A DNA stretch of 64,000 nt, from positions 437,807-501,806 of the forward strand of contig OZ218778.1 of assembly GCA_965112635.1 (NCBI GenBank), read 5' to 3'. The notes beneath the pieces were generated by a model. The model was not told where the DNA came from and did no database searches. It saw nothing but the letters and a program-made list of their open reading frames with translations. The position numbers and the translations under genes were made by a program. This stretch comes from an uncultured bacterium (lineage in GTDB: Bacteria > Oederibacteriota > Oederibacteriia > Oederibacteriales > Oederibacteriaceae). Of the stretch, positions 22,594-54,046 are shown in pieces. Each line of letters begins with the position of its first letter. Positions within the stretch are counted from its first letter, which is position 1.

Positions 22594-22650
22594 ATCATTC
22601 CTCGTTTCAATCACTCAGGTTTAAAAGGAGGTCCTCACAGAGCTGATTTA

Positions 22651-29799: not shown

Positions 29800-29802
29800 G
29801 GC

Positions 29803-31659: not shown

Positions 31660-31734
31660 TGTGCCTCCTTGGGCTCTTTGAGCCTCATCGTTCTATCTCG
31701 ACTCATCAATATAACACCAATTTTCATTGCCTGG

Positions 31735-34928: not shown

Positions 34929-36131
34929 TTAGTTCTCTTTCGGATTGACGGGAAAATAGAATTGTATCCCCCGCTCTACGAGGTTCTTATTGTTTTCCAA
35001 TATTTCTTTTTTAAAATTCCACGCCAGGACATAATAGACATCGGGTAGTTCTTTAAGCTCTTTCTCTATGACCACCGGAATATGCATACCTGGTGAATAT
35101 AGGTTGCGCCTCAATTCGTTTTTTTCCACCAGACAGTCGATCATATCTGTCCCCACTCCGAAGTAATTCAGCATGGTATTACCTTTGACGGGAGCGCCAA
35201 AGCCGAATATTTTTTTCCCAGAACGCTTGGCCTGGCTTAAAAACTCCAGATTTTCTTTTTTCATCCTCTGGATGCGGCGGTAAAACTCCTGATAGGTTTC
35301 GATGCGATTGAACTCCGCCTCTTCTTCCAATTGCCGCATTTTTTTAAGATTTTGGCTTATCTCTTTTTTGCCGCGGTGCGTGACATACCCCACGATGGAG
35401 CCGCCATGGATCGGGTGCAGTTGGGCGTCGAACATTTCTAGTCCATGTCGGCTCAACAGGATCTCAATGGTTTTCAGGGTATAGTAAAGCAAGTGTTCAT
35501 GATAGACCTGGTCAAAAGCCAGGTTCTCCACTATATTTTTCATATATAGGAATTGAACAACAAAAACACCGTTTTCTTTAAGACCCTCTCTGATTCCATC
35601 CGTCACGGAATGAAGCTCTTCCAGATGGAAGAAAACCCCGGCAGCATTGATAACATCGAATTTCCTTCCGATCTGTTTCATGGTCTCAAGATTGAAAAAC
35701 TGGTTCAGGGTGGGCACGCCTGCGTCCACTGCTATTTTGGCAGTGGTCTTGGAGGATTCCACCCCCAGAACCTCATAACCTAGCTTCTGGAAATGTTTGA
35801 GCTGGGTACCGTCATTGGAGCCTATATCCAGGACCGACTTGGCCGGGGTCGTCTTAAAAAACTTCTCATCCACTTCCACAGCCGTCCTGCGAAAATGTTC
35901 ACCTAGTGATTTGGTCACTCCGGAAAGATAGGTATGGTCCCCGAACATGATCTCTTTTTTGACCGTGTAATCAAGCTGCACCGTGGAGCACTTATGGCAA
36001 AACAGAAGATGGAGAGGATAAAAAGGCTCCTTGCCTACTTCCTCTTTTTTCAAGAAATGGTTGCACCAGGGTTGAGACCCCAGGTCTACAACAAGCTCTA
36101 GTTTGTCGGAATCACAGACACGGCAGTTCAT
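34929..36131 (-). CDS. NDP-hexose C-methyltransferase (TylCIII/EvaC type), copy 2, in the GDP-sugar branch
   Basis: The architecture matches 19528..20763: Zn-binding CRVCDS...CHKC, MTase motif I VLDIGSNDG, and the C-terminal C-methyltransferase domain. Confidence 0.75.
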   Translation of the reverse strand: MNCRVCDSDKLELVVDLGSQPWCNHFLKKEEVGKEPFYPLHLLFCHKCSTVQLDYTVKKEIMFGDHTYLSGVTKSLGEHFRRTAVEVDEKFFKTTPAKSVLDIGSNDGTQLKHFQKLGYEVLGVESSKTTAKIAVDAGVPTLNQFFNLETMKQIGRKFDVINAAGVFFHLEELHSVTDGIREGLKENGVFVVQFLYMKNIVENLAFDQVYHEHLLYYTLKTIEILLSRHGLEMFDAQLHPIHGGSIVGYVTHRGKKEISQNLKKMRQLEEEAEFNRIETYQEFYRRIQRMKKENLEFLSQAKRSGKKIFGFGAPVKGNTMLNYFGVGTDMIDCLVEKNELRRNLYSPGMHIPVVIEKELKELPDVYYVLAWNFKKEILENNKNLVERGIQFYFPVNPKEN

Positions 36132-36186: not shown

Positions 36187-37125
36187 TTATCTTGATGACT
36201 TTTTCAGGATCAAATGCATCCCGTAACCATCATCAGGATGCCAGTCCTTTAAGCCTAACCCGTTGCCCCTGACCATATCCTGGGTTTCAAAAGGATGATT
36301 GGTTTCCAGCGTAAATCCCCGGTCCAGAAAGTATTTTTTCCACCATTCGCTGGATTTCAAAGTCCTGTGATAGATACCTCCGATGACAGGATTCTCATCG
36401 GGGAGCAGATCAATGGAACAAACAAAATACCCTCCGGGTTTTAAATGAGTCCTGATATTTCTTACCAATTGCTCCAGATCAGGCTCGGCGATATGTTCGA
36501 CCACTTCCCACGCTGTGATCATGTCAAAGAGCGCTTTTTTATTATGACCTGTATAAACCTGGAAGGGTTTTGATAGGTCACAGGTAAAAAGATGATTGGG
36601 TATGGTATCCCATTCACCGGACCGGAACCTTCGGGAAACATCCGAACCCTCAAGACCTATGGCTGTATAGCCATCCTCCAAAATGGATTTTACGAAACCG
36701 CCTCCCGAACAGCCCAGGTCAAGCAGATGAATATCTTCACGATATCCAAATAACTCATAAAGCTTTAAATTGAATCTATAGTTTTTGGAATTATCATGCA
36801 TCGTACCGCGCGGAAATTTATGGTCATCGCTTGTATAAGCCACGGGGTAATTGGTTTTTATTTTGAAAATTTCTTGTGGATTTAATTTATAGTACAAGAA
36901 ATAGTTGTTTTTCCATAATGTATTGGCCAACTGCTCAAATTTGGTCAAACGCCGCGCCGATATCAGGCGGTCAAGCAGTGATAGGACAAAAAAGAAAAGA
37001 CCCGTCACCACCGGCGGTTTGTGGATCAACAGCCACCCTTTGAGGATCCTGTAATATTTGTTCAATAAACGGATCAAAACCAGTTTCAAGGATGCATCCT
37101 TCCATTCAGAAATCCCTAGCTTCAT
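36187..37125 (-). CDS. Class I SAM-dependent methyltransferase with an N-terminal membrane anchor
   Basis: An N-terminal TM segment, then motif I LLDLGCSGGGF and post-I WEVVEHIAEPD. Confidence 0.7.
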   Translation of the reverse strand: MKLGISEWKDASLKLVLIRLLNKYYRILKGWLLIHKPPVVTGLFFFVLSLLDRLISARRLTKFEQLANTLWKNNYFLYYKLNPQEIFKIKTNYPVAYTSDDHKFPRGTMHDNSKNYRFNLKLYELFGYREDIHLLDLGCSGGGFVKSILEDGYTAIGLEGSDVSRRFRSGEWDTIPNHLFTCDLSKPFQVYTGHNKKALFDMITAWEVVEHIAEPDLEQLVRNIRTHLKPGGYFVCSIDLLPDENPVIGGIYHRTLKSSEWWKKYFLDRGFTLETNHPFETQDMVRGNGLGLKDWHPDDGYGMHLILKKSSR

Positions 37126-37143: not shown

Positions 37144-39660
37144 CTATTCAACCTTTATATTAGCCAGCCAGGACTGGCCCCATGGCGCCCCGGGGTTTCT
37201 GCCCATCGTCGCAATGGATAGAGTACCCGCACCCTGACCTTTGGGTAAAGATATTTTAAATGCCTGGCGCCCCTGGTCTTTTTTGAATTGCACAGGCATG
37301 AGCATGCGCTCAAAAAGTACCTTTGACACCGGACCTTTCTTCATGAACGAGACCTTGAACTTCACACCGTCTGTCTGCCCGCCGTCGGAATAGGCGCTCG
37401 GCAAAAGACCAAAATCCCCGCTCAGGGTCTTTTCCGTACCGTTTAGATGAAATCGGATTTCTCCAGGGGCATGGACCAGGAGCACTTGGTCATCCCCGAT
37501 TTCATGTATATCAACGGGGAACGGGGAATCAATGAGATAAGGAGCGATATTGAAACCGGGATAGAAGTGCAGTAACAGATCACGACCGATTTTCATGTTT
37601 GCTTCACGAGGCCTATCCGCCTCATAAAAAGTCACCTGGAACTTGTCTGTTTTATAAAATCTGGCCATTCTCGGCTCAACTTTCAAATCCAATGACCGCA
37701 CTTCCCGCGGGCTGCGGCCATACAAGATCCTGACCAGATCGGCATTGTCCCTGAGCATCCAGCTCACCATGACCGGCATCCGCATCAGGGTGGGTATGAT
37801 CCGGTAGTTCCACTCAGCATGTTCGCCGTTACACTTCATGGTTAAAGAAAGCATGGGTGGCTTATAAAATACAGACCTCAGTTTGCCAAGCCAGTTCAGG
37901 TCCAGCTGAGCCGTGGCATAAAGGACCTTATCCGGAGCTGTTACGGGCAAAGAAACGGGGTTATCGGGAAGAAGGGCGGCGGAAGATATCATTTTTAGTT
38001 CCCTGCCCGGGTCGGGCCGGGCTTTTTGCCTGAATAATAAAAATCCCTTTTCAGCTAGGACGGGTTCGTAAATATCCAGGATAGCTCTCAGGGCCAGGGC
38101 GTCATCCTGCGCCAAAAGCCGGTAGTCAATGGTCGCCATCTTAAATAAAAAATATTTCGGCCGCTTACCGGGGTCAAGAACATGATCTCGGTTTATCCTT
38201 TCCAAGGTGTCGTTAAAAGTATTAAAAGTCACGGACATGGGGAGGGGACGATAATTAAGCCCGTTGAGCATGACAACACCCTCTTCACAGCCGAAAAAAT
38301 CTATGGTTTCGTTCCCCACTATTTTTCGTACTAGGGGAAGATTGAATTTTTGCCTGTTGATATCCAATCTTTTATCCAGGTCTTTTTTTAGTTCCCTGAT
38401 GCCGATGACATGGGCCACATTATCTTTCAAGGTAATGAAGGGCTGGCTCATGAGATGTCCCAGGTTCATCCTGCCTTCCGTGACCCCGATCAGCGCAAAA
38501 AAGATGCACGCAAGGCAGAGCACTGGCTCAACATAGCTCTTGAAACGCATGCGGCTGCTGCGCCAATCGCTTGGTGGCCCCGCCTGAAGGCCATTGTTTC
38601 CCCTGACAACCAGATCGATGAGGGCGGCAATGACAGCGAACCTGAAAAAAAATTGCACATGCGCATCGGCTCTGACGAATCCATGTTTCCAATCTAGAAA
38701 GGTGCAAAATAACAGCAACAGGCATATCATAACTTTTTGCTTGTTTTGATAGTTGGTTATCCCTGTCCAACATATCAATAGGATCAGAAAAAATAGGGTG
38801 GCTATCCCTGTATTGAAGATATTATTCCCTTCTTGCAAAGACATAGCATCGTTATATCCAGAGGTCATGTATTTGATCCCCATGAAATATTGTGGAATGT
38901 GTAAAAGATTTTGTCCGGCAAAAACCCAGGACACCACAAAAACAGACGCAAAAGCGGCCAAGAGACCTGGTATGAACCGTTTTCGGCCCTGCAAAACATA
39001 AAGTGTGCAGACGAGAGCCAGGGTGAATCCTGCCATGGTAAGGAGAGTCCCCTTACAAAGCGGAAGAAACCCTAAAAAACCGGCTACGAGATAGTTGGGC
39101 CATGGTCTTTCGTTTATTTTTGGGTGCTGAATGAGAAAAATACCGGCAAAAAGGATGCAGGAATCGTAGTAAAGATCAGGCGGCCATCTTAAGGCAATGA
39201 ACGGAAGCAACCATATCCATCTCAAAAATCGAAGCGGGGATTCAAGGATGAACATAATGACCAGAAATGCCAGGGCTCCCTGCACCAAAAGTTCCAAGAT
39301 CATGCGGGTCCAGAATAAATATCCGGCATAGACATATCCGAACATGACAAATCCGTATGGTCCTATGATATGCAAAACATCGGTGCCATATTGAAAATGA
39401 TTGAAAGTAAAGTAGGAGTACGCCGCAGCATTGGAAGAATCAAGAGAATTGTCCAGCACCAGATAGGGAGAGTTGTAAAAGAAGAGAGTCAAAACAAACC
39501 ATAACAATACTACGGCTGAACCGGTAATGACTTTATGACGAAAAAGGTTCACAGGAAACAATCCTGAATATTTTTGTTTCATCTTTCCCTCAAACTCCTC
39601 TTTCATATTGTTATTTGATCCGCATATGAACCCATTAGGACTAATCCAAGCTGGTTTCAC
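37144..39660 (-). CDS. 838-aa polytopic membrane protein with a large C-terminal extracytoplasmic domain (candidate GT-C-like glycosyltransferase / oligosaccharyltransferase)
   Basis: About 13 hydrophobic helices fill the N-terminal 400 aa, followed by a soluble ~430-aa domain. No recognisable family motif such as WWDYG is present. The call rests on architecture and locus context only. Confidence 0.4.
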   Translation of the reverse strand: MKPAWISPNGFICGSNNNMKEEFEGKMKQKYSGLFPVNLFRHKVITGSAVVLLWFVLTLFFYNSPYLVLDNSLDSSNAAAYSYFTFNHFQYGTDVLHIIGPYGFVMFGYVYAGYLFWTRMILELLVQGALAFLVIMFILESPLRFLRWIWLLPFIALRWPPDLYYDSCILFAGIFLIQHPKINERPWPNYLVAGFLGFLPLCKGTLLTMAGFTLALVCTLYVLQGRKRFIPGLLAAFASVFVVSWVFAGQNLLHIPQYFMGIKYMTSGYNDAMSLQEGNNIFNTGIATLFFLILLICWTGITNYQNKQKVMICLLLLFCTFLDWKHGFVRADAHVQFFFRFAVIAALIDLVVRGNNGLQAGPPSDWRSSRMRFKSYVEPVLCLACIFFALIGVTEGRMNLGHLMSQPFITLKDNVAHVIGIRELKKDLDKRLDINRQKFNLPLVRKIVGNETIDFFGCEEGVVMLNGLNYRPLPMSVTFNTFNDTLERINRDHVLDPGKRPKYFLFKMATIDYRLLAQDDALALRAILDIYEPVLAEKGFLLFRQKARPDPGRELKMISSAALLPDNPVSLPVTAPDKVLYATAQLDLNWLGKLRSVFYKPPMLSLTMKCNGEHAEWNYRIIPTLMRMPVMVSWMLRDNADLVRILYGRSPREVRSLDLKVEPRMARFYKTDKFQVTFYEADRPREANMKIGRDLLLHFYPGFNIAPYLIDSPFPVDIHEIGDDQVLLVHAPGEIRFHLNGTEKTLSGDFGLLPSAYSDGGQTDGVKFKVSFMKKGPVSKVLFERMLMPVQFKKDQGRQAFKISLPKGQGAGTLSIATMGRNPGAPWGQSWLANIKVE

Positions 39661-39736: not shown

Positions 39737-40495
39737 TTACTTCCTGTAGCTTTCCAAAACCTTAAAAACACCCAAACAGGCGCGAAAACCTTCAAAAAAA
39801 TATCGGACCGGAGGGAGACCCCGGCTTTTACCGTATTTTCTTTCTCGATGCGTAATATAAATTTGTTTTATGGAATAATTCTCGAATTGGCATCTCAAAA
39901 ATAGTTCGGTGTTCAACAGGGTGGGCATACAATTCACCTGCGGCAGAATTTCTTTAATGACCTCTGCTTTTATCAATCGGAAAGCTGAATTGATATCAAA
40001 ATAATTGACATGAGCGATCATACATGTAATCTGATTAAAAAGTCCTGAAAAAAAACGCCTGAAGAAAGAATCTTTGCGCCCGAACTTGGCCCCATGAACA
40101 ACGTCATAGGCCGGTATATACTTAGCAAGCTTCCAAAAATCAGCCGCCACGTATTGGCCGTCCGAATCGGTAAAAAAAACAAGAGGACACCTGGCCTCGC
40201 TATAAAGTCTTCTAGCCGAAGGGCCGAATCCATCCTTGGTATCGTGATAATTCACTCGGATAAAAGGGTATTTTTTACACAAACGCGCCAGGATCTCCCT
40301 GGTGCCGTCCGTGCTGAGAGCCTCGTCAAAAACAAATTCCGAGCCCTTGGGAAGATATTGAAAAACGTCCCTCACCCATTCCTCAACCACGTCTTCTATG
40401 ATATCCGCCTCGTTGTGCACGGGCATCAGAACCGACACGGGAAGACTTATCCTTGTTTTACTGGTAGCATGGTATTTCTTCAAGTAAAACCTCAT
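39737..40495 (-). CDS. Family 2 glycosyltransferase
   Basis: SVLMPVHNEADII...DEALSTDGT...FFTDSDGQ motifs. Confidence 0.75.
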   Translation of the reverse strand: MRFYLKKYHATSKTRISLPVSVLMPVHNEADIIEDVVEEWVRDVFQYLPKGSEFVFDEALSTDGTREILARLCKKYPFIRVNYHDTKDGFGPSARRLYSEARCPLVFFTDSDGQYVAADFWKLAKYIPAYDVVHGAKFGRKDSFFRRFFSGLFNQITCMIAHVNYFDINSAFRLIKAEVIKEILPQVNCMPTLLNTELFLRCQFENYSIKQIYITHRERKYGKSRGLPPVRYFFEGFRACLGVFKVLESYRK

Positions 40496-40620: not shown

Positions 40621-42066
40621 CTACCTGGTTCTCCCCGAAAAGAAAGATGGAACGATGTACTTGAGACTTTTCAATCCGAAAACGATGGTTTCCCACCAAC
40701 CGCGGTTCTCCACCCTGATATAGACGTAGCCATACATGATGGCGAACCAGAGCCGGAATAGCGGATTGGGCGGCAGATGGATCAATTTTTTTATGATCGG
40801 GAACGACCACGGGATAAGGACCGCGGTCTGAAAAAAATATTGGAGGTTCTCCACTTCCCTGGCATGAGGAAGTTTGAGCGGGGTGCCGGCATGGTAGGTT
40901 CCAATCACATCGTCCGGCCCGTAATTGGGATCAAGAAGTCCCTGTCTTTTGCTCTGCTCAGCCAGCTCAGTCCCCGGGTATGGGATGAAGACCGCGATCT
41001 GCGGGTAATCCGTGCCTATCTTGATATTGATCTCCACGGTCTCCAGGGCTTGTTCCAAAGTCTCATCCGGCAGTCCCACCATGTTGAAAGTCCGGAAGAT
41101 GATATGGTTCTCCTTGAGATAACCCGCTACCCGAATGATCTGTTCATCGGTCACGCCCTTACGCAAGAGACCGTTGCGGAGTTTCTCATTACCGGTCTCC
41201 AGACCGAACAATGCGCTCCTGCATCCAGCCCTGGCGATCATCTTGACAGTTTCCTCGTCCGTCAAATCCGCCCGGATCAGACAGGTGAAAGGGATTTTAA
41301 TTTCTTTTTCGTATATTTCGGTCAGCTCTCTGATCCATTGCTTGTTCATGATGAAAGTGTCGTCAATGAAAAAAACATTTTTAGTCCTTATCCTTGAGGT
41401 GACCTCATGGACCTCGTCCATGAGGTTCCGGGGAGATCGGAAACGGACAGGTTTGCCTTTGCCCCTGTAAAGATCGTTATAGACATGATTGAAACAGAAT
41501 GTGCAGTTGAAAGGACATCCCCTGCCTGCCCTGAAAACCTGTGTCTGCGTGTTCAGGACTTTCGGGTAACGACCGTAAAGTTCTCTCCAGGGAAATGGGA
41601 GCGAATCCATATCCGCTACGAGAGGCCTCACATCGTTCTTTACGATCTCTCCGTTCTTTTTTTTGACCCAAAAATTCGCGATAGCGTCCAGGGGTTTGCC
41701 TTTATCAATGGCTTCAGCCAGCTCCACGATGGCGTTATCGGCTTCGCCCCGGCAGATGATGTCCAAACCCTCCTTTTCGATCACCTCAGGAACGAAGGTT
41801 GGATGAGCTCCACCCATGACAGTCAAGGCATCGGGAAATTCTTTCTTCAATTCCTTGGCCATATTCACAGCCCAGTAATGCCCGCCTGTCATGGCTGAAA
41901 AAGCCAGAACTTGAGGCTTCTCTTTCCTCAATATAGGGATGAAATCTCCTGGTTTCTCGCCGATCAAGGCATCCACCTGGTGCCCGTGCTTTTTCAGCAT
42001 GGCCGCCAAGTACATGGGCCCGAAGAACGGATATCCAATGTCTTGAAGAAAAATGAATTTTGCCAT
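40621..42066 (-). CDS. Cobalamin-binding radical SAM enzyme (class B radical SAM; probable methyltransferase or other radical tailoring enzyme)
   Basis: An N-terminal B12-binding Rossmann-like domain, then the radical SAM CxxxCxxC cluster (GRGCPFNCTFC) and a downstream TIM-barrel region; 481 aa. Confidence 0.85.
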   Translation of the reverse strand: MAKFIFLQDIGYPFFGPMYLAAMLKKHGHQVDALIGEKPGDFIPILRKEKPQVLAFSAMTGGHYWAVNMAKELKKEFPDALTVMGGAHPTFVPEVIEKEGLDIICRGEADNAIVELAEAIDKGKPLDAIANFWVKKKNGEIVKNDVRPLVADMDSLPFPWRELYGRYPKVLNTQTQVFRAGRGCPFNCTFCFNHVYNDLYRGKGKPVRFRSPRNLMDEVHEVTSRIRTKNVFFIDDTFIMNKQWIRELTEIYEKEIKIPFTCLIRADLTDEETVKMIARAGCRSALFGLETGNEKLRNGLLRKGVTDEQIIRVAGYLKENHIIFRTFNMVGLPDETLEQALETVEINIKIGTDYPQIAVFIPYPGTELAEQSKRQGLLDPNYGPDDVIGTYHAGTPLKLPHAREVENLQYFFQTAVLIPWSFPIIKKLIHLPPNPLFRLWFAIMYGYVYIRVENRGWWETIVFGLKSLKYIVPSFFSGRTR

Positions 42067-42140: not shown

Positions 42141-43118
42141 CTAGCCTTTGCCCTGCACCAGGGCCAGGTCCGCGTCCACCATCATGGTCACCAATTCCTT
42201 CAATTTAACCTTTGGCTTCCAGCCCAGGATCTTCCTGGCCTTGGAATAATCGCCCTGCAACAGGTTGACCTCGGCGGGCCTGTAAAAATCCTTGTCCACC
42301 TTGACGTATTTTTTCCAGTCCAGGCCCGCATGGCCGAAAGCAAGCTGGACAAACTCCCTGACGCTGTGCGTTTCTCCGGTGGCGATCACATAATCATCCG
42401 GCTTGCTCTGGTGCAGCATCAGCCACATGGCCTCGATGTAATCCCTGGAAAAACCCCAGTCCCGTTTCGCTTCCAGGTTGCCCAGCCTCAGCTCACGGGC
42501 CAGCCCGCATTTGATCTGCGCGACCGCGTGGGTGATCTTGCGCGTCACGAACTCAAAACCTCTCCGGGGAGATTCGTGGTTGAACAGGATGCCGCTGCAG
42601 CAGAACATGCCGTAACCTTCCCGGTAATTGCGGGTCAGATCAAAACCAGCGACCTTGGATATGCCGTAGGGAGACCGGGGATGGAACGGGGTATCCTCGT
42701 TCTGGGGAATCTCCCTGGCTTTGCCGAACATTTCACTGGAGGCGGCAAAATAAAACTTGCACTTCGGAGCCGATTCCCTGATGGCGGTAAGAATATGATG
42801 GGTGCCGTTGATGTTCGTATTGAGGGTGGAGAACTCGTCCTCAAAGGAATAGCTCACGAAACTCTGGGCCGCCAGATGGTAGCATTCATCGGGCTTTATC
42901 TTGAGGATGACCTTGAACAGGCTGGGGAAGCTTTCCAGGGACCCGGCATGCAGGGTGATCTTGTTTAAAATATGCCTAATTCTCCACATCTGGTGTTCCG
43001 GGTCTTCCAAAGCGACCCGCCTGACGATCCCATGGACCTGGTAACCTTTTTTAAGCAAGAATTCTGATAAATAAGAGCCGTCCTGGCCGTCAATTCCCGT
43101 GATCAGAGCCTTTTTCAT
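42141..43118 (-). CDS. gmd: GDP-mannose 4,6-dehydratase
   Basis: ITGIDGQDGSYL..., YHLAAQS, SSEMFG and YGISK give near-canonical Gmd conservation over the full length. Confidence 0.9.
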   Translation of the reverse strand: MKKALITGIDGQDGSYLSEFLLKKGYQVHGIVRRVALEDPEHQMWRIRHILNKITLHAGSLESFPSLFKVILKIKPDECYHLAAQSFVSYSFEDEFSTLNTNINGTHHILTAIRESAPKCKFYFAASSEMFGKAREIPQNEDTPFHPRSPYGISKVAGFDLTRNYREGYGMFCCSGILFNHESPRRGFEFVTRKITHAVAQIKCGLARELRLGNLEAKRDWGFSRDYIEAMWLMLHQSKPDDYVIATGETHSVREFVQLAFGHAGLDWKKYVKVDKDFYRPAEVNLLQGDYSKARKILGWKPKVKLKELVTMMVDADLALVQGKG

Positions 43119-43164
43119 ATCTTCTCAGTTCCCCTCCCCGTAAGTTTTGCTGGTCTGTGCGCGA

Positions 43165-43225
43165 TCTTTAAAAACTAGAATTACATTTTAGCCTGTTTTG
43201 AGGGTATAAACTACCCCAAACCTGC
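43165..43225 (+). repeat. Copy 1 of a ~60-bp dispersed repeat with core ttttagcctgttttgRgggNRtaaactaccccaaac
   Basis: Compared directly with 46100-46165; the core contains a conserved hairpin (ttggggg...ccccaa). Confidence 0.5.
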
Positions 43226-43316
43226 ACTTTTGCCACGGTACCCACTAAGATTTTTAGATAGAGATGTGATAAAATTTGTTCAATTGTACTAAAACAAACT
43301 TGGATATTGCTAGGAG

Positions 43317-43628
43317 ATGGGAAAAATGCCTGTTCAAATTACCGTTGACGACAAAAAAATAGCCGATTTCTGCGTGCGGAACCATATCAGGAAACTATCC
43401 TTTTTCGGATCGGTGTTGGAGGAAAAATTCAGGCCGGACAGCGATATTGACGTTTTGTTGGAATTCGATACCCAATATCCTGTTGGTTTCAGGATCATTG
43501 ACATGGAAGAAGAGCTTTCCCGTCTGTTGGACGGCCACAGGGTGGATATTGTAAATGCTAAATACCTTAATCCCCGCATGAGGAACAATGTGTTGGCCGG
43601 GGCGGAAATGCACTATGCCCAGGGATGA
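43317..43628 (+). CDS. Minimal nucleotidyltransferase (MNT) antitoxin of a HepT/MNT module
   Basis: Pol-beta-type NTase motif GS...DSDIDVLLEF. Confidence 0.8.
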   Translation: MGKMPVQITVDDKKIADFCVRNHIRKLSFFGSVLEEKFRPDSDIDVLLEFDTQYPVGFRIIDMEEELSRLLDGHRVDIVNAKYLNPRMRNNVLAGAEMHYAQG

Positions 43629-43953
43629 AATGATTTATCTGGGGCATATGCTGGATATGACCCAAAAGGCGGTTGATTCGCTAAGAGGAAAATCCCGTGC
43701 CGATTATGATGGGGATGAAATTCTAAGACTGGCCTTGGCTCACCTGGTGCAGACCATCGGAGAAGCAGCTTCCCACGTGTCAAAAGATACTCACGCGAAA
43801 TACCCCAATATCCCATGGAAAAAAATTATCGGGATGCGGCACAAAGTCGTTCACGACTATATGTATGTGGATTATGACATCCTGTGGGACGTTGTTTCCA
43901 TTGAGCTTCCCGCCATTATTCCTCAACTCAAAAAAACATTGGGCATTAATTAA
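43615..43953 (+). CDS. HepT-like (DUF86) toxin, HEPN RNase
   Basis: Overlaps the MNT gene by 14 nt. DUF86/HepT conservation includes an Rx4HxY-type motif (RHKVVHDY). Confidence 0.8.
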   Translation: MPRDEMIYLGHMLDMTQKAVDSLRGKSRADYDGDEILRLALAHLVQTIGEAASHVSKDTHAKYPNIPWKKIIGMRHKVVHDYMYVDYDILWDVVSIELPAIIPQLKKTLGIN

Positions 43954-44025: not shown

Positions 44026-45633
44026 TTAAATGCCAGATTGCTTCGTCCTCAGCCCTTTGACCGCCTGGTCCGCGATACGCATGGCTATGGCCATGATGGC
44101 GAAAGACAGGTTCTTGGCTGGAAGCACCGGAAATACTCCGGCATCAGCCACATAAACATTTTTGGTGCAAGCCAGTTTGCCATCGGCTTCGGTCCGGTAA
44201 ATGAGGTTCGGGTCATTGCTCATAGCTAAAGTCCCGGCGTAATGGATGCCGTTCCCCGGTGAGGGGTACTGGACCAGGGAACTGTGGGACAAAAACCCCG
44301 CCTTGCGGAAAAGTTTGATGAGATGCTCCTCTACCTTCCCCACTTGGGGCGGCCGGCTATAGAATACCGAGAGCGCCCCATTGGGTTCTAATTTTAAATA
44401 ATTGTCCGGGTTGGGCTCATCCTGGTAAAAAAGCTGCAGCACTGAAATAGCGGGAAGCACATATTTGCTGGCCATCAGGTTGCCCCGCCCAGCCAGGGGC
44501 AGGTCCCGGAATATATCCGAAGCCAGGGGCGAACTGATCCCGAAATAGCTGGCCTGCACATAGCTGTCCCACAGGGGGCCCTCATAAACCGCGTTGAGCT
44601 GGACCAACCCTGTGCTTTGTTCTTCTATCGGGTATCCCAGAAACCGCGGATGCAAAAACGGGATCAGGCTGATCTGGTTTTCCAGCAAAGGCAAATGTGT
44701 TTTAAAGTCGTTGTAGGACTGCAAAACGATCCTGGCGCTGTTGAGCGTGCCTGCGCCCAGGATCAATTTTTTCGCCTCAAATCGTTCCTCGGTCCCTTTC
44801 CTGAGATTTTTGACCGATACTGCGACCCCGTCGTCCGTGTCTTCGAATTTTTCCACCAGGCACTGGTCCGCATATTCTATCTTTTTATCGGCTATCAATT
44901 TTTTCATGGTCATGGCCGGAGAGTATATATATGGTAGGTCTGCCTGCCAAAAAGTAAGATTGTCGTAGTTGCAGGCAGGCCGGTCTGGGAGCGGTTCGCT
45001 GAGCAGACAAACTCTGGAATGGCCCAGAGTAAATCCGTTCCTGCGGAAACAGGATTTTTTAGCCTGGTATTTTTGCAGCAGATGAGCGGACAAGGTATCC
45101 AACCTTAAAGGTTTTTGCAGTCCTGTCCCCGGCCCCAAATGGCCGGCCATGTCATCCACGGCTCCGCTGACCCCTACTTCCCGGGTCAGAATATCGAAGT
45201 AAGGCTCCAGATCTTTGCCTTTAAAAGGGAACTGCTTGAGATCCTTGTCCAGGTAGCGGTAAACTCCCCCGCCCCAGGCATTGGCCAGGCCTCCCAGAGC
45301 AAAACTTTGTACCGGGTCAAACCCCTGTTTGTTGAGTGGAGCCAGCTCTGTGGTCCGGTCTATGACATATCGGAAACGCGGAGCTTTGAGTTTGGAGGTC
45401 ATATAGCTGTGATGCAGGTTATGCAGAGACTCGTACTGCGGCCCGAGCAGGTATTGCCTTTGGTTCTCGTCCTTTTCCCTGAGCTCAAAAATATTTTTGG
45501 ACAGCACCGGTTCTGGCCCGGGTTTTATGCCCACATCCAGGACCAAGGGCTTGAACCCTCTTTGGACCGCCTGGTAAGCTGCCCAGGCTCCGCTGCACCC
45601 TGAACCCACAATGATCAAATCATGAATGGGCAT
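44026..45633 (-). CDS. GMC-family FAD-dependent oxidoreductase
   Basis: N-terminal DLIIVGSGCSGAW (FAD-binding) and a C-terminal GMC active-site region (YVADAGVFP). Confidence 0.8.
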   Translation of the reverse strand: MPIHDLIIVGSGCSGAWAAYQAVQRGFKPLVLDVGIKPGPEPVLSKNIFELREKDENQRQYLLGPQYESLHNLHHSYMTSKLKAPRFRYVIDRTTELAPLNKQGFDPVQSFALGGLANAWGGGVYRYLDKDLKQFPFKGKDLEPYFDILTREVGVSGAVDDMAGHLGPGTGLQKPLRLDTLSAHLLQKYQAKKSCFRRNGFTLGHSRVCLLSEPLPDRPACNYDNLTFWQADLPYIYSPAMTMKKLIADKKIEYADQCLVEKFEDTDDGVAVSVKNLRKGTEERFEAKKLILGAGTLNSARIVLQSYNDFKTHLPLLENQISLIPFLHPRFLGYPIEEQSTGLVQLNAVYEGPLWDSYVQASYFGISSPLASDIFRDLPLAGRGNLMASKYVLPAISVLQLFYQDEPNPDNYLKLEPNGALSVFYSRPPQVGKVEEHLIKLFRKAGFLSHSSLVQYPSPGNGIHYAGTLAMSNDPNLIYRTEADGKLACTKNVYVADAGVFPVLPAKNLSFAIMAIAMRIADQAVKGLRTKQSGI

Positions 45634-46075
45634 GGATTAGCTCCCGGAAAAGCTTGGTCTTTAATAACATAGTTCCCTTGGTCACCTTGTAAGCCGACCG
45701 GACACCCTGATACGCCATCACCAGACAAGCCTTGAACCATGATTTCCTGCGGTTCACGAACAAATGAAAATACCTGCGGTCCGTCTCCACCAAATAGAAC
45801 AGTATTTGCATTTTTTTGGACAAAGGATTATTTTTATCGCGAACGCGCCAAGCGTACTCCACAGCTTCCAAGTCATAATATTTTTCCACTGCCCGGGCCA
45901 GCCGGGTTTGCCACAAGGAAATCTCTGCATCCGTAAAAACAATGCGGTGGGCTTCCTGATAAGCTCGGACTATGCTCGCGTCAGGCTTAAATCCAAAAAC
46001 CTCCTGGCACAGCCATCCACATTCTTTCTCTAAAATAATCCCCATCTCATTTTCCCCGTTTGTCTTATCCGGCAT
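45620..46075 (-). CDS. Hypothetical protein (about 150 aa); overlaps the GMC start codon region
   Basis: ORF only, with no recognisable motifs. The start is uncertain (ATG at 46075 has a good RBS; the track uses TTG at 46120). Confidence 0.4.
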   Translation of the reverse strand: MPDKTNGENEMGIILEKECGWLCQEVFGFKPDASIVRAYQEAHRIVFTDAEISLWQTRLARAVEKYYDLEAVEYAWRVRDKNNPLSKKMQILFYLVETDRRYFHLFVNRRKSWFKACLVMAYQGVRSAYKVTKGTMLLKTKLFRELIHAHS

Positions 46076-46099
46076 ATCTTTCCCTTTTTCCTTGCAGAC

Positions 46100-46165
46100 T
46101 CTTAAAAACATGAAAAACAAAACCTTATTTTAGCCTGTTTTGGGGGCGTAAACTACCCCAAACAC
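46100..46165 (+). repeat. Copy 2 of the ~60-bp dispersed repeat (see 43165-43225)
   Basis: cttaaaaac...ttttagcctgttttgggggcgtaaactaccccaaac, in the same orientation as copy 1. Confidence 0.5.
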
Positions 46166-46359
46166 ACCACTTCCAGGGGCTAATTTATCAAGGGTTCCAG
46201 GGGAGTTTCAATAGGGGATGGGGGGGAGGCGGGATGTCAAATGTCAGACCTGCCCTCCGTAGTGTTTTAAAGGGGGGACGCGACCCCGGGTGTTCTCTCA
46301 GCACCCCCTTGTGGGGTGGTTCTAGAACTACCGAACTAGCGTCTCCGATGCAATGGCCG

Positions 46360-47076
46360 CTACCTAGAGTTTTGTGGTATGCCCTGATTAGCGGGAGCTG
46401 GTGGTCTTAACTGGGGACCATTAAGAACAGCATCCACAAACCGATTCCTTGTTAAAGCGACAATAATTGCATTTCCATCCTTACGGTCAGGATGCAATTG
46501 CCAGAGAACATTTCGCTTTTGATCCTGGTCATACTTTAATACAAACCCCAGAAAATCGAAAAACACCGACACTCGGCTATTGAGCCAGGCGACAGGAAGG
46601 CATTTTTCAGGATTGGGAACTAAGTAATAATCAATCTTGTTTGTGCGTTTAAAACTACCAAAACCCTTTTGAAAACGAGGATAGTCTCTCTTTAGCCGCG
46701 TCCCATCAACAACCCATGCCATTTTTCCATAGAAAGCCTCACGGCTTTGCACCTCACTAGCCTTGATCGCAGAATGCTGAAATTCTATTACGAACCCATT
46801 CTTAGCCTTTATATCTGCAATATGTTTTTCTCCAGTTGTATCTGTATGGATTACCTCCTGCCAATTATCAGGAAAATGTTCTTTCCATTTTCTGTGCCAC
46901 TCTGTTTCATTTTCCCACCAATGATCACAGTCTGCGGTTCTTTTGTGAGCCCAATGCCAGACCTTTACCAGCCCGCACTTGGCGATCATTTCACTTTCGC
47001 AATATCTGCAAGTACCCCGCAGCCCTCGCTGAGCCTCTACCTTGTTTCCATTTACCTTAGCAAATTTCATATTCAT
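46360..47076 (-). CDS. CoiA-like family protein (competence protein CoiA-like; predicted Zn-finger plus nuclease-fold domain)
   Basis: CRYCESEM...C Zn-ribbon, then HWAHKR...H...E...DIKAKNGFVIEFQHSAI, which matches the CoiA-like domain pattern (HFAH...iEfQ.S). First gene of the AT-rich island. Confidence 0.6.
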   Translation of the reverse strand: MNMKFAKVNGNKVEAQRGLRGTCRYCESEMIAKCGLVKVWHWAHKRTADCDHWWENETEWHRKWKEHFPDNWQEVIHTDTTGEKHIADIKAKNGFVIEFQHSAIKASEVQSREAFYGKMAWVVDGTRLKRDYPRFQKGFGSFKRTNKIDYYLVPNPEKCLPVAWLNSRVSVFFDFLGFVLKYDQDQKRNVLWQLHPDRKDGNAIIVALTRNRFVDAVLNGPQLRPPAPANQGIPQNSR

Positions 47077-47105
47077 TTCCTTTTAACACCAAAAATAAGT
47101 CTTAA

Positions 47106-47276
47106 TTACTTTTGCGAACCGTTTTTTTCTAATAATGAACGGATATTTTTTAAATGCTCTTCTATTTTATCTAACTTGAAATACCAAAGGACAATGCTTC
47201 GAAAAATATAAAACAATGAAATCATAATAGCCAAAACTATAATAAAAGCTACTAAGTAGGCCACCGCATCAACCAT
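47106..47276 (-). CDS. Small (56 aa) single-TM peptide with a perfect Shine-Dalgarno sequence; not in the ORF track because it is shorter than 60 aa
   Basis: GGAGGATTTT-ATG, then MVDAVAYLVAFIIVLAIMISLFYIFRSIVLWYFKLDKIEEHLKNIRSLLEKNGSQK, which has one strongly hydrophobic helix. Translated manually. Confidence 0.35.
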   Translation of the reverse strand: MVDAVAYLVAFIIVLAIMISLFYIFRSIVLWYFKLDKIEEHLKNIRSLLEKNGSQK

Positions 47277-47506
47277 AAAATCCTCCTTTAAAATAAAATC
47301 GAAACACCATTAAAACTACATATTGATTTTACGCCCACTGCTATTCCTGTCAAACATTTCACCCAAATATCTATTTCGGCGTTACGGCGATTGCCGAAAC
47401 GCCGAAGGAGATTTGGTAGCGATAAAAGAAGAGGAATTACTGGTTGGGAGTAAAAGGGTGGAAAGAGGCGACTGCTAGACCTTATAACTGAAGACCTGAC
47501 CCCCAT

Positions 47507-48451: not shown

Positions 48452-48458
48452 CCATGTT

Positions 48459-52465: not shown

Positions 52466-52585
52466 CCCCCAATCCCTTCCTTCGCGCTTTTGCTGGTACC
52501 TGGTTGTGTACCATTCCTGGGTGTAACTTCAACGAGGGGAAAGGCAAGGTTAGATTGCAGCAATCTAACCTTGCGGCCCCAAAAA

Positions 52586-53906: not shown

Positions 53907-54046
53907 ACAACTTACACCCGAAAACTTGACATAATCCTGGTACCTCTGCGTTGAGCGCCCTTGCTCTACTGCTTTGCATGCCCGGCGCTCAGAAACTCCC
54001 ATATTTACGCAGACTTCTTCTACCGCTGCGCGTCTTTTCACCGGGC

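Follow-up and report, generated by a model that had tools for sequence, protein, structure and literature searches.

The gene at 40621-42066 on the minus strand of a 64,000-nucleotide stretch of DNA from an uncultured bacterium (hereafter the window) encodes a class B (cobalamin-dependent) radical SAM enzyme, as judged by its domains, cobalamin (Cbl) motifs and predicted fold, with cobalamin binding predicted. The gene is embedded in a cell-surface polysaccharide locus, and the enzyme probably tailors the glycan made there; C-methylation is our leading guess for its reaction and is offered tentatively. The explanation that best covers the data overall, to which we assign a probability of about one half, is a class B enzyme of a glycoconjugate subfamily that modifies the sugar of the array running from gmd to Wzm/Wzt, methyl transfer included. 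Class B radical SAM enzymes catalyse C-C bond formation and rearrangements beyond the reach of ordinary enzymes, methylation being one of several reactions, and those with known functions act on antibiotics, cofactors, lipids and proteins.

Results

Domains and cofactor motifs of a class B radical SAM enzyme

The open reading frame is intact, starts with ATG and is preceded by GGAG about 6 nt upstream of the start codon; the same 481-aa gene call is present in the public record. Residue numbers given here count Met1, which is missing from the reference used for the alignment and the structure model (an offset of 1). An N-terminal Rossmann-type cobalamin-binding domain (residues 16-116; 41719-42021, minus strand) matched Pfam B12-binding (PF02310) with 67.9 bits (E 9e-19, cutoff 32.1), and the radical SAM core (residues 181-345; 41032-41526, minus strand) matched Radical_SAM (PF04055) with 85.1 bits (E 8e-24, cutoff 29.5). 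In the translation, the CxxxCxxC motif that binds the [4Fe-4S] cluster reads CPFNCTFC (C184/C188/C191) and lies at 41494-41517 on the minus strand, a range derived by moving 41497-41520 (GCPFNCTF) one codon downstream. An earlier sequence-only reading had described a B12-binding domain and this motif in the frame; both were seen, with both Pfam matches above their cutoffs and with the three cysteines and the following Phe invariant in 31/31 aligned homologues.

The class B Cbl domain is defined by a downstream Cbl motif (G-x-S/T-x-L-like), a Gly-Gly on beta4 and a Gly-Glu at alpha5, drawn from the OxsB, TsrM and TokK structures (PMC9204698). Their counterparts here are S57-x-M59, G85-G86 and G107-E108, respectively; F56-S57-x-M59, G85-G86 and R106-G107-E108 were kept in 29-31 of the 31 homologues, as was D235-D236, at the GGE-equivalent position of the radical SAM core, in 30-31. 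An AlphaFold (AF2) model of the protein (pLDDT 90.4) recovered the barrel fold, and its best solved-structure Foldseek matches were MgmA, AprD4, TsrM, OxsB, CysS and TokK (E 1e-19 to 3e-15), with query-normalised TM scores of 0.63-0.70 and 15-18% sequence identity to solved class B enzymes. The Cbl domain aligned with those of MgmA, OxsB, TokK and CysS. The predicted fold is shared with MgmA (9ccb), TsrM (6wte), OxsB (5ul4), CysS (9n1b) and TokK (7kdx), whose S-x-[L/M], GG, GE and Cys-loop motifs align with those of our enzyme. Those enzymes act on a protein glutamine, on tryptophan, on a nucleoside, and on carbapenam or pantetheinyl intermediates, and their C-terminal domains differ from the one found here. 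The best solved-structure match by sequence was AprD4 (6fd2; profile E 5e-26), the 1,2-diol dehydratase of apramycin biosynthesis, with paromamine as substrate. At profile positions 149-395, this match is limited to the radical SAM domain. AprD4 is described as not binding cobalamin (PMC12931638), an example of a related N-terminal domain without the cofactor, whereas the Cbl motifs are conserved in our enzyme.

A family-specific, aromatic-rich helical cap at the C terminus (residues 400-475; 40642-40869, minus strand) carries an NLQxFFQTA signature and conserved N, F, P and Y positions. F, W and Y make up 21% of the cap compared with 10% of the remaining sequence, and hydropathy averages +0.27 in the cap compared with -0.24 outside it. 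Four helices are predicted for it, at a pLDDT of 94-98 that drops to about 65. Transmembrane anchoring was rejected for the whole enzyme, cap included, since no hydropathy window reached the threshold.

A widely distributed subfamily outside the curated families

Hundreds of homologues, 896 of them at E<=1e-10, aligned with the protein across 96-100% of its length. As judged from these alignments, the number of homologues, the aligned length and the invariance of the cysteines are far beyond chance. The homologues are spread over many phyla of bacteria as well as DPANN archaea and include proteins of cultured aerobic Flavobacteriia (Tenacibaculum and Aurantibacter); annotation pipelines label them 'BchE-like' or 'YgiQ-like'. 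No curated family was reached, all 23 NCBIfam matches falling far under their cutoffs. HpnJ (TIGR03471) was the best curated profile (161.4 bits, E 3e-47, cutoff 577.6, residues 58-381), followed by BchE (TIGR02026; 131.2 bits against a cutoff of 481), and both matches leave the C-terminal cap uncovered. Scores of about 27-28% of the cutoffs place the protein in neither family. HpnJ and BchE have themselves been proposed not to be methylases (PMC9204698).

Among the remaining profiles, the AprD4 family (NF033070) scored 64.8 bits against a cutoff of 500, PhpK 103 of 600, HpnR 86 of 650, KedN5 55 of 700 and the MCR glutamine C-methyltransferase 61 of 360; the ladderane-associated, BzaD and TsrM-type families were likewise rejected, each scoring below its cutoff. 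The scanned open reading frames of the window contained no hopanoid genes (squalene-hopene cyclase or hpn), and the window holds no bacteriochlorophyll genes. A grouping with cofactor- or lipid-modifying B12 radical SAM enzymes, an outcome that would have counted against the sequence-only reading, was therefore not found, HpnJ and BchE lying far below cutoff. The protein belongs instead to a subfamily of proteins of about 475 aa that is uncharacterised, occurs widely and has its own aromatic-rich C-terminal cap.

Position in a gmd-to-Wzm/Wzt array

The radical SAM gene is the second of a same-strand array that starts at gmd and runs into the Wzm/Wzt polysaccharide region. All genes from gmd to past Wzt share the strand, with gaps of 2-137 bp: 74 bp between gmd and the radical SAM gene, and about 125-137 bp between the latter and the GT2 gene downstream. 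No terminator-like site was detected in these two spacers, and terminator-like matches numbered 24 compared with 17.8 +/- 4.1 in shuffled sequence, which is no excess. A promoter-like hexamer pair in the spacer between the radical SAM and GT2 genes suggests that the genes downstream may have their own transcription too. The placement proposed earlier, between gmd and a GT2 gene within a polysaccharide locus, was thus confirmed: both neighbours were found, and the shared strand, the short gaps and the lack of a convincing terminator point to a common unit. Upstream of gmd, a non-coding spacer (43119-43316, no strand assigned) is the likely promoter region of the array. It is bounded by a plus-strand gene pair that likely marks the start of the unit; a plus-strand frame here (43317-43628) resembles a minimal nucleotidyltransferase.

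The first gene of the array (42141-43118, minus strand) encodes GDP-mannose 4,6-dehydratase (Gmd), with 406 bits to TIGR01472 (cutoff 415). A GDP-heptose 4,6-dehydratase was considered because family members elsewhere are accompanied by heptose genes of the GT9, SIS and HldE types and because the locus contains a weakly HddA-like GHMP kinase; this identity was excluded by 373 bits to solved Gmd (PDB 1n7g) compared with 126 bits to a GDP-heptose dehydratase (7us5). Similarly, the nucleotidyltransferase at 21823-22614 proved to be RfbF and not HddC. The window contains neither a GT9 gene nor a second B12 radical SAM gene, and Rfam detected no RNA elements in it.

Downstream of the radical SAM gene lies a small GT2 gene (Pfam GT2; 39737-40495, minus strand; 252 aa, or 248 aa in the public call) whose product resembles polyprenyl-phosphate sugar synthases. 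Its top NCBIfam matches, all under cutoff, were PgfS, dolichyl-P hexose transferase, AglJ, ArnC and PpgS, and its best solved relative is ArnC (E 4e-4, residues 19-225). The next gene (37144-39660, minus strand) encodes a large polytopic membrane protein of 838 aa (820 aa, with a start at 39606, in the public call) that matched no Pfam or NCBIfam family. Hydropathy predicts seven transmembrane segments within its first 400 aa, and an invariant Asp follows the first helix. In Foldseek searches with its model (pLDDT 89.5), the membrane part matched the GT-C enzymes AftA, ArnT and EmbA/B at low TM scores (0.28-0.38) and the C-terminal beta-sandwiches matched CBM51/CBM6, on which basis we tentatively regard the protein as GT-C-like. 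Neither the YfhO-like protein at 15163-18117 nor the membrane proteins that adjoin family members elsewhere are significantly similar to it. Nor do homologues of the 838-aa protein provide a link to B12 radical SAM enzymes, as they lie in Verrucomicrobia and adjoin a sequence-unrelated SPASM-type radical SAM enzyme.

The array continues, on the minus strand throughout, with a 312-aa class I SAM methyltransferase (36187-37125; Pfam Methyltransf_23/12/11), a TylCIII-type NDP-hexose C-methyltransferase (34929-36131; Methyltransf_13 and Methyltransf_14), a GDP-fucose-synthase-like (GMER/Fcl-like) epimerase/reductase (33979-34926; NCBIfam Fcl 126 bits, cutoff 500) and an additional SDR epimerase/reductase (33007-33945; Pfam Epimerase). 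At 28567-30579 follow Wzm and Wzt, the ABC-2 permease and the ATPase with a glycan-binding Wzt_C domain of a polysaccharide export system (Pfam ABC2_membrane, and ABC_tran with Wzt_C), with NCBIfam matches to galactan/teichoic-acid exporter ATPases. A second TylCIII-type C-methyltransferase, again with Methyltransf_13 and Methyltransf_14, lies at 19528-20763. The sequence-only reading had taken the two C-methyltransferases as a sign of one heavily C-modified sugar. Both enzymes are present, but they belong to separate branches, a GDP branch comprising gmd, the first C-methyltransferase and the Fcl-like gene, and a CDP branch about 15 kb away comprising RfbF, RfbG, the second C-methyltransferase and an RmlC-like gene; a single sugar carrying both modifications gains no direct support. 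The locus as a whole encodes at least six SAM methyltransferase domains, and ManB and ManC are encoded within the same window.

Recurrent association with glycan genes in other genomes

We extended the analysis to 78 loci, one per species, from genomes of other species. With paralogues set aside, the genes at +/-1 and +/-2 numbered 218; 17 were GT2, 10 GT9, 6 GT87 and 7 PMT_2 (about 18%). Within six genes of the homologue, a GT9 cluster was present in 19 loci and GT2 in 13, PMT_2 and YfhO-like proteins in 4 each, and GT87 in 6, each time immediately upstream. A large polytopic membrane protein lay within two genes of the homologue in 27/78 loci, a modest enrichment of such neighbours (12.6% compared with 7.3%, Fisher p = 0.026). 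Up to eight paralogous copies occurred per 20 kb in arrays of family members. Many loci had no glycosyltransferase at +/-2, and gmd does not travel with the family, weak SDR-type matches being present in at most 3-5 of the 78. The closest homologue (64% identity) lies between GT9 and GH94 genes, with gmd not adjoining, and another close one (55%), from a 4-kb contig, has pdxA on one side and an amino-acid kinase gene on the other.

Searches with tblastn and phmmer demonstrated that most of the window's neighbours do not travel with the family; their specific set recurred in one locus only, in a Lambdaproteobacteria MAG (L031). This tightly packed locus repeats the local module, with a C-methyltransferase (46% identity), a methyltransferase, an Fcl-like protein (55%), a GT2 (58%), a YfhO-like 768-aa membrane protein and a B12 radical SAM enzyme (38%). 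The full module is thus found in only two long loci, that of the window and L031, whose large membrane proteins belong to unrelated families. Other loci have related contents: L096 contains SDR, GT2 (259), methyltransferase, PMT_2 (twice), GT9, methyltransferase and radical SAM genes; L088 has the order B12 radical SAM, PMT_2, B12 radical SAM, putative Wzm, and Wzt with Wzt_C; and L097 is a Wza/Wzc/Wzy locus.

Orthologues of the GT2 (58-69% identity) adjoin C-methyltransferase and Fcl-like genes in L031 and in L091-L094, and orthologues of the class I methyltransferase (49-50%) adjoin the GT2 orthologue in L092 and L093. The C-methyltransferase at 34929-36131 is 71% identical to the L092 copy and 46% to that of L031; the Fcl-like protein is 55-66% identical to the copies in L031, L091 and L092. 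The contigs from the metagenome scan with the GT2 measure only 1.6-4 kb, too short to show a nearby radical SAM gene. The short contig L092 has the order methyltransferase, GT2, C-methyltransferase, Fcl-like gene with no radical SAM gene between them, indicating that the radical SAM enzyme is not obligatory in a C-methyl-sugar cassette.

Collectively, other genomes show a conserved, though not universal, association of the family with glycan genes. Transcriptional separation of the gene from the locus, which would likewise have spoken against the sequence-only reading, was not indicated, the family-wide neighbourhood being glycan-related. The repeated occurrence of the subfamily among cell-surface sugar-polymer genes suggests that it probably performs a chemically difficult modification of a surface sugar.

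Discussion

From the observed domains, motif conservation, fold class, gene order and recurrent context, we infer the following order of steps, together with a substrate and a methyl-transfer chemistry for the radical SAM enzyme. ManB and ManC would supply GDP-mannose, which Gmd would convert to GDP-4-keto-6-deoxymannose. The SAM-dependent C-methyltransferase would then methylate the position beside the keto group, and the Fcl-like enzyme and the SDR would complete a GDP-6-deoxy-C-methylhexose. The small GT2 may load this sugar onto polyprenyl phosphate, and in the periplasm, assuming a diderm envelope, the GT-C-like protein may add it to the exported polysaccharide. The radical SAM enzyme would make a modification beyond the reach of keto-directed chemistry, its substrate most likely being the GDP-sugar or the lipid-linked sugar. 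By the usual class B mechanism, SAM would be reductively cleaved at the [4Fe-4S] cluster to give a 5'-deoxyadenosyl radical; this would remove hydrogen from a sugar carbon that is not activated, and the methyl group would come from methylcobalamin.

The nucleotide-sugar part of this route has a parallel in Coxiella burnetii, for whose LPS sugar virenose a route through gmd, a TylCIII-type C-methyltransferase and GMER, with no radical enzyme, has been proposed in silico (PMC3539893). The same three enzyme types flank the radical SAM gene here, and a paper on Coxiella LPS phase variation mentions neither radical SAM nor B12 nor cobalamin. Since the virenose route dispenses with a radical enzyme, an extra step is left for the one in our locus.

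Precedents for methyl transfer to such a substrate are GenK, GenD1/GntE, Fms7 and MoeK5, which methylate unactivated sp3 carbons of carbohydrate substrates. They likewise combine a Cbl Rossmann domain with a radical SAM barrel. These enzymes are encoded in secondary-metabolite clusters, whereas our gene lies in a surface-polysaccharide locus, and the C-terminal cap described here is family-specific.

The rival explanation with the most in its favour, which we consider unlikely but well worth weighing, is that the enzyme acts on the glycan sugar by a radical reaction other than methylation, such as ring contraction or carbocycle formation on a lipid-linked sugar, 1,2-diol dehydration or deoxygenation, epimerisation, or oxidation. 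OxsB performs a radical ring contraction on a nucleoside and AprD4 a 1,2-diol dehydration. For HpnJ, the top curated profile (161 bits, E 3e-47) ahead of BchE, the proposed reaction is not a methylation but a contraction of the sugar ring in lipid-linked glucosamine (PMC9204698). This lipid-linked amino sugar is of the same type as the substrate suggested here by the ArnC-like GT2 and GT-C-like neighbours, which are, as is the aromatic-rich cap, compatible with a lipid-linked substrate. The best solved-structure sequence match, AprD4, is a sugar diol-dehydratase, and the abundance of SAM methyltransferase domains in the locus implies that methylation capacity is not lacking. However, neither profile comes near its cutoff (HpnJ reaches 161 of 578, that is 28%, with the C-terminal 100 residues unmatched, and AprD4 65 of 500), and the AprD4 match leaves out the Cbl domain, whose motifs are conserved here. 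According to a 2026 review, no other group of the class is as well studied or as well represented as its C-methyltransferases (PMC12931638).

A modification of something other than sugar within the same pathway, such as an anchoring lipid, the polyprenyl carrier, an acyl chain or a partner protein, appears improbable. Several of the relatives by profile, namely HpnJ, HpnR and the ladderane-associated protein, have lipid substrates, the cap is hydrophobic as well as rich in aromatic residues, the partners that recur most widely are membrane-embedded proteins and not the enzymes of any one nucleotide-sugar pathway, and the arrays of up to eight paralogues per 20 kb resemble iterative hydrocarbon tailoring. 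Against this, we saw no hopanoid, fatty-acid or isoprenoid genes beside the gene, either in the window or in those related loci that were annotated, and glycosyltransferases and nucleotide-sugar enzymes dominate the neighbours. Least probable is a bystander gene, unrelated or inactive, in a variable and horizontally assembled region: the region is mosaic, with a 39% GC island holding two transposases 4 kb away, a small plus-strand gene pair that breaks the array upstream of gmd, a GC3 of 0.62 in the radical SAM gene compared with 0.48-0.55 in the next five genes, and some homologues in non-glycan surroundings, but the frame is intact with every cofactor motif conserved, the gene shares its strand with its neighbours across short spacers without a terminator, and the glycan context recurs in many phyla, the specific module in L031.

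A class B enzyme acting on a surface glycan would be new to the literature that we searched. The sequence-only reading had called such a role poorly documented, in agreement with the searchable literature, in which no class member has been characterised in this setting: no B12 radical SAM enzyme was found in O-antigen, LPS or polysaccharide synthesis, and a search on heptosyltransferases was likewise negative. The words polysaccharide, glycan and sugar do not occur in the 2026 review of B12 radical SAM enzymes, and those of its named enzymes that act on carbohydrates, among them the antibiotic-sugar enzymes GenK, GenD1, Fms7 and MoeK5, belong to antibiotic pathways (PMC12931638).

The neighbours of the family also permit a bolder and rather speculative proposal, in which the subfamily provides a widespread, unrecognised step in surface-glycan synthesis, namely B12 radical tailoring (alkylation or rearrangement) of a polyprenyl-phosphate-linked sugar between loading by an ArnC/Ppm-like GT2 and periplasmic transfer by a GT-C protein. 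The two genes downstream of the radical SAM gene resemble the ArnC/ArnT, GtrB/GtrC and Ppm/GT-C pairs, and family members elsewhere adjoin GT87, PMT_2 and YfhO-like GT-C proteins. In contrast to ArnC-type systems proper, all GT2 scores here are below cutoff, and the membrane protein has no Pfam family and weak structural matches. To our knowledge, no described polyprenyl-phosphate-sugar glycosylation system includes a B12 radical SAM enzyme. Should the proposal be right, glycosylation systems of the Arn/Gtr type would have the radical SAM enzyme as a further component, and arrays of up to eight paralogues would build sugars or glycolipids with several undescribed radical-installed carbon substituents.

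The presence of the family in cultured Tenacibaculum and Aurantibacter makes a genetic test feasible without cultivating the organism of the window, and gmd, the C-methyltransferase, the Fcl-like enzyme, the ArnC-like GT2, the GT-C-like protein and the radical SAM enzyme form a gene set for in vitro reconstitution. If the subfamily does tailor surface polysaccharides, the labels 'BchE-like' and 'YgiQ-like' would be misleading, and the envelopes of bacteria and archaea would hold sugar structures that have yet to be catalogued.

The radical SAM enzyme and its cofactor sites

The radical SAM gene (positions 40621-42066, minus strand) is an intact open reading frame of 481 amino acids with an ATG start, preceded by a GGAG about 6 nt 5' of the start codon. 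By Pfam, residues 16-116 form a B12-binding domain (67.9 bits against a cutoff of 32.1) and residues 181-345 a Radical_SAM domain (85.1 bits against 29.5), with E-values that exclude chance, and the cluster motif CPFNCTFC lies at residues 184-191 (41494-41517, minus strand; one codon downstream of 41497-41520, which translates as GCPFNCTF). The sequence-only reading, which had described such an enzyme between a GT2 gene and gmd, was thus confirmed by the open reading frame, the Pfam matches and the translation. Residue numbers count Met1, which is absent from the alignment and model reference.

A structure-based review (PMC9204698) defines three motifs in the cobalamin domain of this class, namely a downstream G-x-S/T-x-L-like motif, a Gly-Gly on beta4 and a Gly-Glu at alpha5, and likewise defines the cysteine loop and the GGE-equivalent of class B enzymes. 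In an alignment of 31 family members, 43-63% identical to the query, the equivalents of these motifs are nearly invariant: F56-S57-x-M59 followed by G61, H63 and W65; G85-G86 followed by H88 and T90; R106-G107-E108; the cluster cysteines C184/C188/C191-F192; and D235-D236 in place of the GGE. A profile of the family aligned these motif regions onto MgmA, OxsB, TokK and CysS, sharing a GEGE stretch with MgmA, TokK and CysS and the shorter EGE with OxsB. The AlphaFold model (pLDDT 90.4, pTM 0.87) best matched the solved structures of MgmA, AprD4, TsrM, OxsB, CysS and TokK, with TM scores of 0.63-0.70 at 15-18% identity. Conserved motifs and modelled fold identify the protein as a cobalamin-type (class B) enzyme with predicted cobalamin binding. 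Its last ~80 residues form a family-specific helical cap that is more hydrophobic than the remainder and rich in F/W/Y (21%, against 10% elsewhere), with no predicted membrane span.

None of the curated B12 radical SAM families was reached as an identity for the enzyme. All 23 NCBIfam matches fell far below their cutoffs, including HpnJ (161 of 578), BchE (131 of 481), ApyD (122 of 750), PhpK (103 of 600), a ladderane-associated protein (96 of 360), HpnR (86 of 650) and AprD4 (65 of 500). A large protein collection yielded 896 homologues at E<=1e-10, the closest being 64% identical, with a broad shell of ~475-aa proteins at 41-48% identity from Flavobacteriia, Nitrospirota, Elusimicrobiota, Omnitrophota, Planctomycetota and Deltaproteobacteria; the names in the source records are either generic or mislead, for example 'anaerobic Mg-protoporphyrin cyclase' and 'YgiQ family'. 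Through a scan of one genome per species, we found 523 encoded relatives, and the 78 loci retained include DPANN archaea and cultured aerobic Flavobacteriia, among them Tenacibaculum xiamenense (L001) and Aurantibacter aestuarii (L002). Close members are also encoded, at 39-46% identity, by DPANN archaea (Woesearchaeota, Aenigmatarchaeota) and by a Methanobacteriota metagenome-assembled genome (MAG) (loci L008, L026, L040, L042, L043, L044, L049 and L054), which implies transfer of a glycan-tailoring gene between domains.

A polysaccharide locus with two predicted C-methyl sugars

Between 4.4 and 60.5 kb, the window consists almost throughout of minus-strand genes for polysaccharide biosynthesis. 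Its low-coordinate end carries manB, manC, an SDR gene and a WcaJ-type initiating phosphotransferase gene, followed by GT1 and GT2 genes, among them a second ArnC/AglJ-like small GT2 (10421-11131, 236 aa; best matches AglJ at 125 bits, ArnC and PpgS), and a 984-aa YfhO-like membrane protein (15163-18117); the last two, both on the minus strand, are possibly a second pair of polyprenyl-phosphate sugar synthase and GT-C transferase. A CDP-sugar branch at 18075-22614 (minus strand) comprises RfbF (467 bits, cutoff 300), RfbG (409 bits, cutoff 278), a C-methyltransferase, an RmlC-type epimerase and an SDR, the first two above their curated cutoffs. The branch is complete and predicts a CDP-6-deoxy-C-methylhexose beside the GDP-derived one, and two different C-methyl-branched sugars in one locus would be unusual. 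Both C-methyltransferases noticed in the sequence-only reading proved to be of the TylCIII type, one in the CDP-sugar branch (19528-20763) and one in the block beside the radical SAM gene (34929-36131).

A 1587-aa protein with an N-terminal methyltransferase domain and three GT2 domains (22651-27414, minus strand) adjoins a separate 386-aa methyltransferase and Wzt with its Wzt_C domain, and the set resembles the polymerase and chain-terminator layout of ABC-transporter O-antigen systems, in which Wzt reads a terminal methyl cap. The wzt and wzm genes lie, on the minus strand, between the gene for the 1587-aa protein and those for an FAD oxidase and a GHMP kinase (30658-32991, minus strand), which separate wzm from the sugar-modification genes. 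The oxidase scored above the L-2-hydroxyglutarate oxidase cutoff (336 bits against 299), and the best match of the kinase was the heptose-7-phosphate kinase HddA, at 151 bits far below the cutoff of 600.

The block around the radical SAM gene runs, in rising coordinates and on the minus strand, SDR, GDP-fucose-synthase-like (Fcl-like) gene, C-methyltransferase, methyltransferase, 838-aa membrane protein (37144-39660), small GT2 (39737-40495, a Pfam assignment, downstream of the radical SAM gene), radical SAM gene and gmd (42141-43118). The gmd product scored 406 bits against TIGR01472 and 373 bits against solved Gmd, establishing it as a genuine GDP-mannose 4,6-dehydratase, as previously read; a GDP-heptose dehydratase was rejected at only 126 bits. 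Beyond gmd lie a 535-aa GMC-like oxidoreductase (44026-45633, minus strand), an island of 39% GC with two transposases, and rmlABCD.

On the plus strand, two small overlapping open reading frames (43317-43953) lie between gmd and the GMC-like gene, and therefore the same-strand unit that includes the radical SAM gene most likely begins at gmd. The first of the two matches a minimal nucleotidyltransferase (PDB 1wot, E 1e-6), no solved relative was found for the second, and by layout they look like a putative MNT/HEPN-type toxin-antitoxin pair. By the public gene calls for the same sequence, the spacers are 74 bp between gmd and the radical SAM gene, 137 bp between the latter and the small GT2, and then 130, 18, 55 and 2 bp. 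A consensus scan, in which terminator-like sites were no more frequent than in shuffled sequence, detected none in the two spacers on either side of the radical SAM gene; the spacer before the small GT2 contains a weak promoter-like pair. Transcriptional separation of the radical SAM gene from the locus, which had been raised as an argument against a glycan role, was unsupported by strand, spacers or terminator scan, and the gene may be co-transcribed with its neighbours.

The low-GC island (46000-54000; 38-39% against about 50%) holds several open reading frames without a Pfam family, a CoiA_N-like and a TaqI_C-like one; two transposases, one an rve-type integrase/transposase and the other of the Mutator family, lie at its edge and slightly beyond. 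It looks like a mobile insertion that split the polysaccharide region from rmlABCD. In a comparison by Rho, the best named matches were 81-83% identical and came mostly from NC10/Methylomirabilota.

A candidate synthase and transferase pair downstream

The curated families nearest to the small GT2 (PgfS, a dolichyl-P hexose transferase, AglJ, ArnC and PpgS) all consist of polyprenyl-phosphate sugar synthases, each scoring below cutoff, and among solved structures ArnC is the best relative (E 4e-4, residues 19-225). The 838-aa membrane protein has no Pfam or NCBIfam family and only 85 homologues, and hydropathy predicts seven membrane segments within its first 400 residues. In its model (pLDDT 89.5), the membrane part matches the GT-C enzymes AftA, ArnT and EmbA/B with probabilities of 0.90-1.0 at TM scores of only 0.17-0.38, and the C-terminal beta-sandwiches match CBM51 and CBM6. 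An invariant Asp stands just past the first helix (D56 in the 820-aa public gene call), the place at which GT-C enzymes have a catalytic acidic residue. From the GT2 profile matches, the GT-C fold matches and this Asp, we read the two genes as a probable pair, the first forming a polyprenyl-phosphate sugar and the second transferring it on the periplasmic side, tentatively so for the membrane protein.

Relatives of the membrane protein form tandem arrays of 5-9 paralogues of 700-950 aa in Verrucomicrobia (locus L090, found through this protein, 211-15669), followed by genes for a SPASM-type radical SAM protein (408 aa), a methyltransferase (406 aa), a GT2 and an SDR. Functionally the set equals that of the window, with a radical SAM enzyme unrelated to the window's.

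Gene neighbourhoods across the family

Open reading frames of the 78 loci, one per species, were called by the longest-ORF rule and clustered, the paralogue cluster by single linkage; since the loci were chosen with patterns that include the family's C-terminal signature, the set is biased toward this subfamily. Within six genes of the homologue we found a GT9 cluster in 19 loci, GT2 in 13, SPASM-type radical SAM in 10, SDR in 7, GT87 in 6 (always immediately upstream), YfhO-like in 4 and PMT_2 in 4. A Pfam scan of all non-paralogous neighbours (114 proteins at +/-1 and 104 at +/-2) returned 17 GT2, 10 GT9, 6 GT87 and 7 PMT_2 proteins, together with 12 class I methyltransferases and 8 other radical SAM proteins. 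Glycosyltransferases thus make up about 18% of these neighbours and ~1-2% of bacterial genes generally, an enrichment of about tenfold. A large polytopic membrane protein lies at most two genes from the family member in 27 loci, and such proteins account for 12.6% of near genes against 7.3% of those at a distance of four positions or more within these loci (Fisher p = 0.026), a modest enrichment over a conservative baseline. Two neighbourhoods count as counter-examples: the closest homologue (64%) is flanked by GT9 and GH94 genes, and a 55% homologue on a 4-kb contig by pdxA and an amino-acid kinase gene.

In 46 of the 78 loci the homologue is accompanied within 20 kb by one or more further B12 radical SAM paralogues, up to seven of them. 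Arrays of 4-8 paralogues within 20 kb, often with one GT9, occur in candidate division LCP-89, Anaerolineales, Chloroflexia, Woesearchaeota and others (L016, L021, L074, L075, L015, L044 and L067), which suggests iterative radical tailoring of one product.

Longer annotated loci likewise place the family among glycan genes. L088 reads SIS, methyltransferase, GT9, methyltransferase, B12 radical SAM, PMT_2, B12 radical SAM (46%), putative Wzm, Wzt with Wzt_C, SDR, aminotransferase and NeuB, and is another ABC-transporter glycan locus. L096 reads SDR, GT2 (259 aa), methyltransferase, two PMT_2, GT9, methyltransferase, radical SAM, B12 radical SAM (48%) and B12 radical SAM. The capsule-type locus L097 runs HldE-like, SIS, SPASM radical SAM, a split transketolase, GT2, two small open reading frames, B12 radical SAM (47%), B12 radical SAM and SDR, with Wza, Wzc and Wzy farther along; the split pair (3995-5285, N-terminal and pyrimidine-binding parts), between the SPASM gene and the GT2, may combine thiamine-dependent two-carbon sugar branching with radical tailoring. 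In L087, from a Nitrospiraceae MAG, the homologue (47%) is followed by an acyltransferase, a GMC-like oxidoreductase, an SDR and a GT9. This oxidoreductase (12512-14131), two genes downstream of the radical SAM gene, is 22% identical to that of the window (E 3e-27) and is possibly a further recurring partner.

Most of the genes around the radical SAM gene in the window do not accompany the family elsewhere. One locus, L031 from a Lambdaproteobacteria MAG, repeats the gene set, tightly packed: C-methyltransferase (46% identical to the window's), Fcl-like (55%), small GT2 (58%), B12 radical SAM (38%), a methyltransferase and, as the large membrane protein, a 768-aa YfhO-like one, alongside an asparagine-synthase-like gene, a GT2 and an LPG_synthase_TM protein. 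A metagenome scan added four close relatives of the small GT2 on contigs of 1.6-4 kb; one of these, L092, carries methyltransferase (49%), GT2 (60%), C-methyltransferase (71%) and Fcl-like (66%) in that order, and parts of this set recur on L091 and L093. These gene sets therefore firmly tie the small GT2 to C-methyl-6-deoxyhexose genes. The radical SAM gene and the large membrane protein join the C-methyl cassette in both loci that are long enough, the window and L031; in L092 the cassette is contiguous without a radical SAM gene.

Proposed pathway and competing readings

In the proposed pathway, ManB and ManC would supply GDP-mannose, which Gmd would convert to GDP-4-keto-6-deoxymannose; the TylCIII-type enzyme would methylate the carbon adjoining the keto group, and the Fcl-like protein and SDR would epimerise and reduce the product. 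A similar route, which needs no radical enzyme, has been proposed in silico for virenose in Coxiella LPS (PMC3539893). The class I methyltransferase may O-methylate the sugar, which the small GT2 would place on polyprenyl phosphate and the GT-C-like protein would join to the polymer that leaves through Wzm and Wzt. The radical SAM enzyme would provide a step beyond the reach of keto-directed chemistry, in which a 5'-deoxyadenosyl radical and methylcobalamin would deliver a methyl group to an unactivated sugar carbon. Such methylation is our leading guess because C-methyltransferases have been studied more than any other group of the class and are its best represented, enzymes of antibiotic sugars included (2026 review, PMC12931638). 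We infer this pathway; what has been demonstrated for the radical SAM gene is cofactor-site conservation, fold class, gene order and recurrent context.

The main rival is that the enzyme performs non-methylating chemistry on a lipid-linked sugar. Its best profile match, HpnJ, has ring contraction of a lipid-linked glucosamine as its proposed reaction (PMC9204698); its best sequence relative among solved structures, AprD4, is a sugar dehydratase, said not to bind cobalamin (PMC12931638) and aligned over the radical SAM domain only; and methyltransferases are already plentiful in the locus. Two lesser rivals hold that the enzyme acts on a non-sugar substrate or that the gene is a bystander.

In summary, the class B enzymes, and the action of some members on sugars in antibiotic pathways, are already known. 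Three features appear to be undescribed: a subfamily without a curated model and with its own C-terminal cap, its consistent placing in surface-glycan loci of many bacterial phyla and DPANN archaea, and its recurrent adjacency to pairs of small GT2 and GT-C proteins. The 2026 class review (PMC12931638) does not mention polysaccharides or glycans, and a targeted full-text literature search, with most subscription journals outside its coverage, returned nothing relevant on B12 radical SAM enzymes in surface-glycan synthesis; the earlier remark that such a role is poorly documented is in keeping with this result. Though no surprise in kind, the subfamily, with its proposed chemistry, represents a good and testable lead for enzyme discovery.
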